A DNA stretch of 40,985 nucleotides, taken from positions 1 through 40,985 of IMG/VR virus record IMGVR_UViG_2563366942_000017; one strand, given 5' to 3'. The translations under genes were made by a program, and so were the position numbers. The notes under the pieces were generated by a model. That model did not search any database and was not told the DNA's origin. It saw nothing but the letters and a program-made list of their open reading frames with translations. This document shows, in pieces, positions 32,370 to 35,826 of this stretch (position 1 is its first letter; every line of letters begins with the position of its first letter). This DNA comes from a virus (lineage: Duplodnaviria; Heunggongvirae; Uroviricota; Caudoviricetes).

Positions 32370-32430
32370 CTTTACCTTCGCTTATCCACATAACTTATTG
32401 ATTACATTGATAACTAAAAAGATCGTCGAT

Positions 32431-32892: not shown

Positions 32893-33693
32893 TTACTTGA
32901 TAAATCCTGCCGCCTTTCCCCGCCTGTATTCCTCCATCAGCCACTGCGCCGGTGTTATTCCCCCCAGGGTAGCGGCGTTAGGCATACACCCGAAACTTCG
33001 CCCTGGTGGATGGTAAACGTCTCTCCCTGTGTCCGGAGGCGTACTCATGGGTTCTGACTTTGCCTGTATGCTGATCACCGGATCGGGTATCTGCTGTCCG
33101 GAAGCCACCTTTTTCGCCCAATCATCAAGCAGCCTGCGCGCGTGTTTCTCAACCTCAATCTCGCTAAGCTGGCGCTGATACATTGCACGGCGGGTATCAC
33201 ATACGACCCAGTACATAACCGGATGCCGCCACGGGAATCTTTCGGGACCACCAGGATATAAACTTTTTTCCTTGCTGTACCGGTGAAACTCCGCCATCAC
33301 ATCGTCAATGGTGACGCCAAGAACCATCTTGCTGTCTTTACACCACTTGATAAATTTCCCTGGCGACGGCCAGAACGGAGATTCACTGGCGCGGGCGTGG
33401 CGCATACCAGCAGAAACCTGTTCACGGGTTCGGATCCCCCCTTCGGCAAACGCAGCAATCCACTGCTGTTTTGCAGCAACTTCCTGCTCTGGCGTCTTCA
33501 GGTTGGTTACCACTGCCGCCGGAAACAGTTGTTTCAGCTGTTTGAAAAGGGCATCAACAAGCCTCTCTGCTGACATGTTCACTACGTTGTCATTGTTGGT
33601 GTACTGATGCTCATAACCTGACATGCGAGAAAGGGCTTCTCCGTCACGGTTTTGTATTGCGGTAAAAACGTTGTTCACAAGAAATCCTCCCAC
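32893..33693 (-). CDS. Replication protein P-like (helicase loader)
   Basis: Similarity recalled to lambda P (WxAAF.E.GI.T.EQV.AGMR.AR....F.PSPG.F..WC); start uncertain (in-frame ATGs also at 33624 and 33576). Confidence 0.6.
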   Translation of the reverse strand: MGGFLVNNVFTAIQNRDGEALSRMSGYEHQYTNNDNVVNMSAERLVDALFKQLKQLFPAAVVTNLKTPEQEVAAKQQWIAAFAEGGIRTREQVSAGMRHARASESPFWPSPGKFIKWCKDSKMVLGVTIDDVMAEFHRYSKEKSLYPGGPERFPWRHPVMYWVVCDTRRAMYQRQLSEIEVEKHARRLLDDWAKKVASGQQIPDPVISIQAKSEPMSTPPDTGRDVYHPPGRSFGCMPNAATLGGITPAQWLMEEYRRGKAAGFIK

Positions 33694-34490
33694 GCTTCAG
33701 GGCTGTTCCAGTGCGGAACGTTGTTATCAGGTAATGTTGATTGCTTCTGTCTGCTAATCTGCAGCCGCCTTGCCAGCTTCTGCTCCCACTGTGCCTGATG
33801 GTATGCCTTACCCTCAGCCATCCAGTAAATTCTGAACTCTGCAAGTTCCTGTGCCGTTGGCAGACTGTCCAGGTAGATTCCCTGCAATGAGCTTTTCCGA
33901 AGAAAGTCATCTGATGGCTGCCATTGTTCATGCATGACAAATTTGCCTAATTGCCCTGGCCCACCAGGAGGAACAAAGTTATTCATCACGGCGTTGTTTG
34001 CACCGGGGTCATGAGGCACAGAATCCCCGCTTTTTGTCCTGCTCTCCCTCTCTTGGTTAAATGACTGGTTATATGACTGGTTCTGGATCCCGTTTTTGGG
34101 ATCATTCAACATCCCGTTTTTGGGATCATTCAACATCCCGTTTTTGGGTATATTCCCGTTTTCGGTAACATTACCGTTTTCGGGTTCATTACCCCCTTCC
34201 CGGTTGCCTTTAATGTTCCCGTTTTTGGTTATATTAAGAGAGAAAACCCGCACTCTTTTCGTCGCTCCCTTTCTCTCTCCGGTATCTGAAATAAGCCCCA
34301 TTTTCATGAGCGATATAAGCCCGGCCTGCACGGTTTTTTTGTTCAGGCAAGTGTCTTTAACGAGGCGTTCTATGCTGGGGTAGCAGAGGTTATATTCATC
34401 GGCTCTGTCAGCCATCGAGAGCAGTATGAGCTTTAATGACGAGCTACCTGGATCTGTCTCCCAGGCCCAATCTGTTGCATGTCTGCTCAT
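33675..34490 (-). CDS. Replication initiator O-like protein (contains origin iterons)
   Basis: N-terminal winged-helix-like region; central residues NGNI/PKNGMLND repeats are translations of DNA iterons; immediately upstream of P-like gene. Confidence 0.6.
   Translation of the reverse strand: MSRHATDWAWETDPGSSSLKLILLSMADRADEYNLCYPSIERLVKDTCLNKKTVQAGLISLMKMGLISDTGERKGATKRVRVFSLNITKNGNIKGNREGGNEPENGNVTENGNIPKNGMLNDPKNGMLNDPKNGIQNQSYNQSFNQERESRTKSGDSVPHDPGANNAVMNNFVPPGGPGQLGKFVMHEQWQPSDDFLRKSSLQGIYLDSLPTAQELAEFRIYWMAEGKAYHQAQWEQKLARRLQISRQKQSTLPDNNVPHWNSPEAWEDFL
34087..34235. repeat. Iteron array (putative replication origin) inside O-like gene
   Basis: Six direct repeats of consensus (A/C)CCGTTTT(T/C)GG: two 24-bp units ATCCCGTTTTTGGGATCATTCAAC, then four shorter units. 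Confidence 0.65.
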
Positions 34491-34856: not shown

Positions 34857-35087
34857 TCATGAGTAGAAGAAGTATGCCAGTTCTGCTTTTGAGCGCAGCC
34901 ATTGTCTTGATTTACAGGCTTTAAAAAGCCCATCCATCAATACCTTACCTGGCATTTTGCGCTTACCTGTTAAGTGAGTCTGGATATAGTGACTCGTCGT
35001 TCCGGCTTCCTGTGCGAAGGCTTCACGCTCATCCGGAGTAAGTGCAAGCCAGTGCTTTTTGAAATCGAAATGTCCGTTATCGCTCAT
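34857..35087 (-). CDS. Cro-like HTH regulator
   Basis: 76 aa, first gene of rightward-equivalent early operon, divergent from repressor; HTH-like segment TSHYIQTHLTGKRKMPGKVL. Confidence 0.5.
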   Translation of the reverse strand: MSDNGHFDFKKHWLALTPDEREAFAQEAGTTSHYIQTHLTGKRKMPGKVLMDGLFKACKSRQWLRSKAELAYFFYS

Positions 35088-35241: not shown

Positions 35242-35826
35242 ATGAAAAGTATCCAGGACGTCCGCAGGCAAAATCTCAACGACTTGATCGACCGTGAATT
35301 CAATGGTGTTCAGACGCGGATGGCTGAAAAACTTGGAACTCAGGCAAATCTGGTAAACCGCTGGGCTCTTGGCAAGAAGGTTATCGGCGACCAGGTTGCG
35401 CGAAAAATTGAAGCTGCCGCCAATAAACCCCGTAACTGGCTTGATATCGATCGCTCGCTTTCTCAGGAAGGTTTTCAGCCTGTCGGACCAAGCGACATTG
35501 GTCAACTGGCGGCTCACAACCTGGAACGCTGGATGAGCGAAAGCCGCGACCTTTCAACGCAGGGAAAACTTCACCGCGCATCCGGCGTCGCCCAGGTAAC
35601 AATCAGCCGCCTGTTAAACAATGAGGTCAGCGTTTCCATTTCCACCCTGGAGAATGTTGCATCCGCATTTGGGCGTCACGGATATGAATTACTGATTCAC
35701 CCGCACGACCCCGCGACTATCAACTATGACCGCTCGCGCTACGCATTGTTACCTGAAACAGAGAAGGCAAAGATCGAAAGTTACATTGAATTTGTCATCA
35801 ACCAGAACGAAAAAAACAAACAATAA
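35242..35826 (+). CDS. Prophage repressor candidate (two HTH regions, no peptidase S24 domain)
   Basis: N-terminal CI-type HTH (QTRMAEKLGTQANLVNRWALGKK) and a second XRE-like HTH (LHRASGVAQVTISRLLNNE); divergent from cro-like; flanked by operator clusters; no Ser-Lys autocleavage motif. Confidence 0.55.
   Translation: MKSIQDVRRQNLNDLIDREFNGVQTRMAEKLGTQANLVNRWALGKKVIGDQVARKIEAAANKPRNWLDIDRSLSQEGFQPVGPSDIGQLAAHNLERWMSESRDLSTQGKLHRASGVAQVTISRLLNNEVSVSISTLENVASAFGRHGYELLIHPHDPATINYDRSRYALLPETEKAKIESYIEFVINQNEKNKQ

Follow-up and report, generated by a model that had tools for sequence, protein, structure and literature searches.

Introduction

Where does a phiV10-like phage begin to replicate its DNA? 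The question is raised by a group of direct repeats in a 40,985-nucleotide stretch of viral DNA (IMG/VR record IMGVR_UViG_2563366942_000017, positions 1 to 40,985; referred to below as the window), which represents a phiV10-like (Uetakevirus) podophage of Escherichia (E.) coli. These repeats, or iterons, are found inside the gene of a replication initiator, and an initial annotation of the sequence had proposed that they mark a replication origin, as in phage lambda, where the origin lies inside gene O. The comparison with relatives, the gene context and the layout of the lambda and P22 origins all support this proposal. We consider it likely that the array is the replication origin of the phiV10-like phages, with a lambda-type architecture, and the six repeats are, very probably, the sites to which the initiator binds. 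Both statements are drawn from sequence comparisons, which are presented below together with the alternatives that they have to be weighed against.

The iteron array

A repeat-finder run, which the initial annotation had suggested as a check, returned one family of six direct repeats at 34087-34239, with starts at 34087, 34111, 34135, 34153, 34171 and 34216, i.e., at spacings of 24, 24, 18, 18 and 45 nt. The first two 24-nt units match at every position. The consensus CCGTTTTYGG is matched eight times in the window, six of these in the array, while dinucleotide-preserving shuffles gave 0.14 +/- 0.35 matches with a maximum of 1. The six copies of CCGTTTT(T/C)GG and the two near-identical 24-bp units noted initially are thus confirmed. 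The same search recovers the four annotated lambda iterons (spacings 20, 24 and 23 nt) and the four repeats in the annotated P22 origin inside gene 18, which were used as positive controls. Tandem Repeats Finder (TRF) describes the array both as period 24 x 2.6 copies (score 124) and as period 18 x 3.1 copies (score 70). No other array in the 41-kb window scores as high; an adjacent array of 12-mers is third (51), and scores elsewhere are at most 42. The individual copies are:

34087..34102, minus strand: iteron 6, next to the 12-mers; perfect dyad ATCCC-AAAAAC-GGGAT, with GATC at both ends
34111..34126, minus strand: iteron 5; perfect dyad, same as iteron 6
34135..34150, minus strand: iteron 4; coding strand TACCCAAAAACGGGAT, one imperfect arm
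34153..34168, minus strand: iteron 3; core CCGAAAACGG, degenerate arms
34171..34186, minus strand: iteron 2; core CCGAAAACGG, degenerate arms
34216..34231, minus strand: iteron 1, the most distal; core CCAAAAACGG, 45-nt gap to iteron 2

Read on the coding strand, two copies are perfect dyads, a third has 2 mismatches and the remaining three are degenerate. Part of the 45-nt gap that separates iteron 1 from iteron 2 (34193-34215; coding strand AAAGGCAACCGGGAAGG) resembles a decayed iteron, and the gap may hold such a copy; no other stretch of the initiator gene is as polymorphic among close relatives. At the two perfect iterons, three GATC (Dam) sites (34086, 34100 and 34124) are packed into ~40 bp. 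GATC is denser here than in any other 100-bp stretch of the window, though the cluster is statistically modest. The DnaA box TTWTNCACA is matched five times in the window (4.3 expected), and the match nearest to the array is found at 32382, 1.7 kb away.

The initiator protein

The array occupies codons 85-135 of the initiator open reading frame (ORF), between the parts that encode an HTH_36 domain (amino acids (aa) 18-67) and a DnaT domain (aa 184-252). The observation that the repeats lie in the middle of the gene and are translated as NG-rich peptides was therefore correct: the translation consists of N/G-rich repeats (...NITKNGNIKGNREGGNEPENGNVTENGNIPKNGMLNDPKNGMLNDPKNGIQ...) with (P/E)(K/E)NG units.

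33675..34490, minus strand: replication initiator gene, 271 aa (ORF; Pfam, PHROG and PDB matches)
34239..34490, minus strand: part of this gene coding for the N-terminal DNA-binding domain, aa 1-84 (conserved across phages of five genera, with 44-58% identity)

With its counterparts in EC.W1-9, phiv142-3, PAS61 and phiV10, the gene shares 97-99% identity. Its product is composed of an N-terminal winged-helix-type domain of the HTH_36 family, a linker encoded by the repeats and a C-terminal domain of the DnaT type. The HTH_36 match (PF13730) scores 40.9 bits against a gathering cutoff of 25 (E 2e-10), and the homologues of phages GF-2, AP22 and Bcep176 match HTH_36 too. The Pfam match to DnaT has an E value of 1e-15, and over its full length the protein matches PHROG 1032, "replication initiation protein" (E 1e-108). 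The C-terminal 85 residues (query 180-265) can be aligned with E. coli DnaT over residues 85-170 of the latter (PDB 9zbt and 4ou6; E ~1e-20). The likeness to E. coli DnaT ends there, the N-terminal two-thirds being HTH_36 and repeat linker, and identity with DnaT over the full length was rejected, with the C-domain alone aligning. In GenBank, relatives are named "primosomal protein I", "DnaT", "DnaT-like ssDNA-binding domain-containing protein" or "pyocin large subunit"; the first of these names is misleading because the DnaT likeness is limited to the C-terminal domain and the gene occupies the initiator slot of a phage.

The gene had been called O-like. The term holds for architecture and role, not for the protein family. 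Phage_rep_O (PF04492), which lambda O and P22 gp18 match at ~1e-36 to 1e-38, has no match in the window protein, and an hhalign comparison of the N-domain profile with lambda O was not significant (probability 2.9%); membership in the lambda O family was rejected on these grounds. A BLASTP comparison of the window protein with P22 gp18 also gave nothing significant, and PDB sequence searches with the N-domain profile and with lambda O returned no significant match, i.e., no solved structure of either N-domain and hence no structural bridge between the two. A single-sequence AlphaFold2 model of the initiator (mean pLDDT 38, pTM 0.25) was unusable. The N-domain (aa 1-84) is the presumed reader of the iterons.

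The array in related phages

The array was found at the same position in all of the first six N-domain homologues that were checked, i.e., a close pair, phiV10 and BP9 (95.8-97.1% identical), and four distant relatives (36-50% identical), PPompW of E. coli, Edwardsiella GF-2, Vibrio Her and Acinetobacter AP22. Their cores are related, CCCAAAAACGGG, CCCAAAATTGGG, CCGAAAACGGTAC or CCCAAATTTGGG, of which the first is that of the window sites and the second that of the GF-2-type sites. A seventh homologue, from Burkholderia phage Bcep176 (41.5% identity over aa 1-94), harbors the array as well. SPN1S, Tyrion and TL-2011b, which are homologous by the DnaT C-domain only and have other N-domains, carry it in none of the three cases.

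The wider survey comprised five scans of IMG/VR, which yielded 349 loci with 333 complete genes in 37 N-domain clusters at 85% identity (of at least 599 pattern matches in the database, ~520 are confirmed loci). The surveyed clusters reach ~35% N-domain identity and include phages of Escherichia, Edwardsiella, Vibrio, Acinetobacter and Burkholderia. A motif-agnostic search, in which the most repeated 11-mer of each gene was determined, found a family of 4-9 copies right after the N-domain in 37/37 clusters, and the core (A/C)CC-N6-GG with an A-rich centre is common to 36 of them. When one mismatch is allowed, the window-derived core reaches a density of 11.5 per kb within 260 nt past the N-domain in the other 36 clusters, compared with 0.10 per kb elsewhere in those loci, both strands included.

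The exception is cluster L154 (IMGVR_UViG_3300021090_000059), which has a different 23-bp repeat, GGAAGCAGGTGCAG, at a spacing of 23 nt. Its wing region is divergent too (DTGDRKGRTRS), and L154 is a possible case of changed specificity.

DNA versus peptide constraint

A repeat array within a gene could also be a slippage-prone, low-complexity coding sequence for a flexible N/G-rich linker, the DNA as such being without function. Such an explanation would account for the six window copies being in one frame and encoding (P/E)(K/E)NG repeats, and slippage predicts what is found among 81 close, near-identical relatives, where the core copy number ranges from 4 to 9 in steps of 18 and 24 bp. It does not account for the family as a whole. 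In 33 of the 37 clusters the copies are found in two or three reading frames (spacing modes 17-18 and 22-24 nt), such that the same motif is translated into unrelated peptides; in Bcep176, for example, the copies are in frames 2, 1, 0, 2, 0, 1 and 2. The conserved entity is therefore the DNA and not the peptide. As a nucleotide sequence the motif is conserved even between proteins that are only ~35-50% identical, and the homologues that share only the C-domain, with other N-domains, lack the array.

The symmetry of the sites points in the same direction. Perfect arms of 5+5 nt with a 6-nt spacer occur 52 times in 9.6 kb of array zones compared with 22 times in 22.9 kb of remaining gene sequence, a 5.7-fold enrichment (Fisher p = 5e-13), where the count in the remaining gene equals the chance rate. 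The arms vary between clusters yet stay complementary (ATCCC/GGGAT, GTACC/GGTAC, GTCCC/GGGAC, GTTCC/GGAAC and CCCCC/GGGGG), i.e., they covary as DNA dyads, which looks like the signature of a site for a symmetric dimer.

Polymorphism was assessed in 44 near-identical alleles of the window's gene, after removal of one recombinant allele. Variable positions make up 1/60 in the cores, 7/48 in the spacers, 6/31 in the 45-nt gap and 56/641 in the remaining gene. The cores thus vary less than the spacers and gap taken together (13/79; p = 0.004), while the comparison with the remaining gene gives p = 0.08. The difference includes third codon positions, of which 1/18 is variable in the cores against 4/18 and 35/214 outside them. 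The co-occurrence with the N-domain in 37 clusters, the use of several frames, the covariation of the arms and the low polymorphism of the cores show that selection acts on the DNA, not on the peptide, and a mere coding repeat becomes a very improbable explanation.

Dyads might, on the other hand, function in the early transcript, as RNA or single-strand hairpins that control translation or stability or that terminate antisense transcription, or they might serve as patches of homology for the exchange of modules. The complementary arms do allow small hairpins, and domain swaps do happen at the array. Weak intrinsic-terminator-like hairpins are present on the antisense (+) strand at 34097-34116 and 34121-34140, each formed by an iteron's right arm, the left arm of its neighbor and the T-run; they are probably a by-product of the dyads. 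If RNA pairing were selected, mismatches in the arms should favor G:U pairs; they include 4 G:T, 17 A:C and 45 others, and this lack of G:U bias argues against an RNA hairpin. Single-strand folding of the array region was no better than that of shuffled sequences (z = -1.6). Within a genome all copies have one arm sequence and a conserved A-rich spacer, neither of which a hairpin needs, and recombination alone leaves the dyad symmetry and the multiple copies unexplained. Hairpins or homology patches are the least probable of the explanations considered here.

A second element next to the iterons

Unwinding elements can be built from repeated 13-mers, and the AT-rich region of lambda displays purine-strand asymmetry (PMC5043065). 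In the window, the following features adjoin the last iteron:

34054..34086, minus strand: tandem 12-bp repeats, candidate DNA-unwinding element; coding strand GAACCAGTCATAT AACCAGTCATTT AACCAAG, ~60% A+T
34023..34053, minus strand: purine-rich tract (coding strand) that follows the 12-mers
34023-34039, minus strand: outlying iteron-like site; coding strand GGACAAAAAGCGGGGAT, a seventh family member with 2 mismatches, from the motif-agnostic search

The 12-mer array (34054-34082; TRF period 12 x 2.4 copies, score 51) lies directly after the last iteron, at a position that corresponds to the AT-rich region of lambda and to the 14-bp tandem repeat of P22. By this analogy, 34054-34086 is a putative unwinding element; a function of the 34023-34053 tract is likewise putative. 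The 12-mer is present in three copies in phiV10, and almost all of the 37 clusters have, directly after the last iteron, 2-4 tandem repeats with a unit of 12-13 bp around GAAYC (for example at 1909-1944 in L001 and at 1867-1914 in L004). GAAYC occurs 31 times per kb in the 70 nt past the last iteron and 2.9 times per kb in the remaining gene. In cluster L205 the translation of the GAAYC repeat is NQSL in one frame and EPVI in another, which indicates that these repeats, too, are a DNA element. In many clusters the A+T maximum of the gene (75-88%) is found directly after the last iteron.

The origin probably extends beyond the coordinates first given for it, 34087-34235, to include the 12-bp repeats at 34054-34086.

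Gene context and comparison with known origins

The array is located in an early region with the following genes and signals:

32893..33693, minus strand: helicase loader gene of the lambda P family (PF06992, E 4e-56; PHROG 109, "P-like helicase loader")
34857..35087, minus strand: cro-like early gene (PHROG 35)
35141-35113: pR-like promoter upstream of the cro-like gene (consensus scan only)
34835-34816: tR1-like terminator downstream of the cro-like gene (consensus scan only; the phiV10 record has a terminator at the same place)
35242..35826, plus strand: divergent repressor gene with two HTH motifs (Pfam HTH_3, PHROG 8)

The helicase loader gene (32893-33693) overlaps the 3' part of the initiator gene (33675-34490). 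Upstream of the latter, a small ORF is found in addition to the cro-like gene and the divergent repressor. The order of initiator, P-like loader, cro-like gene and repressor is that of lambda, the promoter and terminator matches are at the places expected for them, and early transcription of the rightward type would cross the iteron array. The phiV10 record has the identical gene order annotated, as well as terminators; it contains no rep_origin feature.

The resemblance to the lambda origin extends to its parts: dyad direct repeats ~18-24 bp apart are found inside the initiator gene, between its N- and C-terminal parts, followed by an element at the unwinding position and then by the P loader gene, all of them within the early operon downstream of cro. 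The site sequences resemble each other as well (lambda ATCCCTCAAAACGAGGGA, window ATCCCAAAAACGGGAT). The anatomy of the lambda origin has been described, where the iterons beside the AT-rich region matter more and where Stx phages harbor six iterons in place of the four of lambda (PMC7466680). In the window it is likewise the copies adjoining the 12-mers that are perfect dyads, comparable to the more important AT-side iterons of lambda, and the copy number varies between relatives in both groups (4 in lambda and 6 in Stx phages; 4-9 here). The differences concern the N-domain (HTH_36, PF13730, here; Phage_rep_O, PF04492, in lambda), the C-domain (DnaT-type and not lambda-O-type), the spacer between the arms (~6 nt here, 7-8 in lambda) and the unwinding position, where 12-bp GAAYC repeats with ~60% A+T are found instead of a tract with 80% A+T.

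The origin of P22 is similarly annotated inside an initiator gene, gene 18, also of 271 aa, with four iterons followed by a tandem repeat of 14 bp x 2. In contrast to the window protein, gp18 is a PF04492 protein; its gene is followed by that of a DnaB-type helicase (gene 12), and the P22 iterons (TTTACCAGATCGGTAAA) are unrelated in sequence to those of the window.

Iteron origins of plasmids, with winged-helix Rep proteins, share with the window the placement of repeated initiator sites beside an unwinding element, in the window a candidate one, that can itself consist of short repeats (for example the 13-mers of RK2 and oriC). Plasmid iterons are located outside the rep gene, usually together with DnaA boxes. 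The window's array differs in that it lies inside the gene with no DnaA box nearby. In Paracoccus plasmids, HTH_36-type Rep proteins are found with iteron-like repeats outside the gene (PMC3832669).

Weighing the origin assignment

The explanation closest to an origin is that the repeats are binding sites of the N-domain that serve another purpose, such as autoregulation, a roadblock to early transcription, titration or control of copy number, while replication starts elsewhere. Co-occurrence, dyads and frame independence establish a DNA site tied to the N-domain, which is not the same as origin firing, and in the window the neighboring region is not strongly AT-rich. In many relatives, however, the AT maximum of 75-88% lies directly past the last iteron, and the 41-kb window contains no other comparable repeat array or origin candidate. 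The layout matches the experimentally defined origins of lambda and P22 element by element, including the downstream repeat, and the array is placed immediately before the helicase loader gene. We therefore regard a binding site without origin function as improbable.

Several observations nevertheless weigh against an origin at the array. Codon-shuffled genes already give families of 2-5 copies, so that clusters with 4-5 copies gain little support from copy number by itself; since the copy numbers overlap this null, the argument relies on position, on the shared core and on frame independence. In the window's own cluster all six copies are in one reading frame, which means that the window alone cannot separate a constraint on the DNA from one on the peptide. 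Family-wide, all outer positions are paired in only 37/198 CC-N6-GG sites, and the low polymorphism of the cores could partly result from homogenization between repeats. The region after the iterons has ~60% A+T over 40 nt in the window compared with 80% in lambda, and an unwinding element is thus not obvious there. Finally, literature searches and the sequence records consulted returned no description of this origin, and the literature no binding or origin-activity evidence for members of the family.

If the array is the origin, as we consider likely, lambda and P22 suggest by analogy how it may work. Initiator dimers would bind each dyad through the HTH_36 N-domain and build a complex similar to the O-some, where the perfect dyads adjoining the 12-mers are probably the key sites. 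This complex, together with early transcription from the promoter on the cro side, would destabilize the adjacent 12-mer region. The C-domain would then recruit the P-like loader with the host DnaB, or hold the opened single strand; the homologous DnaT domain is named for binding of single-stranded DNA (ssDNA). The encoded N/G/P/K-rich peptide would be merely a tolerant linker.

Module exchange

Alignment of the homologues places the array at a length-variable junction between the domains. In the window, the N-domain and array are joined to a DnaT-type C-domain, followed by P. In GF-2 (L004, gp62) their C-domain partner is of the lambda-O type and a P gene comes next, and in AP22 (L006, gp76) the partner is yet another C-domain, followed by a DnaB-like helicase. 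This association of the same N-domain and array with three C-domains indicates that the N-domain and the array move as one unit; the C-domain varies with the partner that recruits the helicase.

A more far-reaching and tentative proposal is that the origin is a portable module of two parts, which travels with the HTH_36 N-domain and consists of dyad iterons and 2-4 GAAYC unwinding repeats of 12-13 bp. The latter would be recognized in a sequence-specific manner by the initiator or a host factor, possibly as single strands, as are the 13-mers of oriC and RK2, and the module would have been recombined with at least three types of C-domain (DnaT-type, lambda-O-type and the type found before DnaB).

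Three further records are of interest in this context. The structural genes of the window are closest to those of TL-2011b, with 97% identity across 86% of the 25 kb that entered the comparison (window 1-25000). The TL-2011b initiator has a different N-domain and no iteron array, and that of the window is of the phiV10 type; the replication module is thus mosaic within the genus. The record of Escherichia phage BP9 (PP488543.1), a 138-kb Vequintavirus, has a phiV10-type block of repressor, cro, initiator and P at its end (133.4-137.2 kb), with an array that is one 24-bp unit shorter; the presence of this block looks like chimeric assembly or contamination. An 8,461-bp E. coli sequence recorded as a circular plasmid (NZ_CP148379.1; L352) is composed of a repressor, cro, ydaT, a related array-bearing initiator, P and a small number of cargo genes, and resembles a natural lambda-dv. 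A prophage segment colinear with it is found in the chromosomes of 16 other genomes, and the record originates from a single-cell assembly. It may be a lambda-dv-like circle, i.e., a natural mini-replicon, or an artefact, and it was not counted as evidence.

Concluding remarks

An iteron origin in the linker of an initiator gene is a textbook design, found here in another initiator family, which is widespread and has so far not been annotated. The additions to this design are modest, i.e., a family-wide definition of the iterons, the GAAYC repeats and the exchange of modules, and concepts remain unchanged. For the phiV10/Uetakevirus group and hundreds of related prophages, the analysis pins the probable origin to a 200-bp segment. 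It also provides a portable rule for finding such origins, namely (A/C)CC-N6-GG repeats followed by GAAYC 12-mers right after an HTH_36 domain. These results are of use in phage engineering, replicon design, prediction of incompatibility and annotation. The solution known from lambda, an origin in the linker of its initiator, would thus recur with a DNA-binding domain in which no sequence similarity to that of lambda O can be detected, and the DNA-binding domain and the origin would behave as a single exchangeable unit. If the tentative two-part module is real, it would define a large uncharacterized initiator-origin family across the phages of Gammaproteobacteria and Betaproteobacteria.

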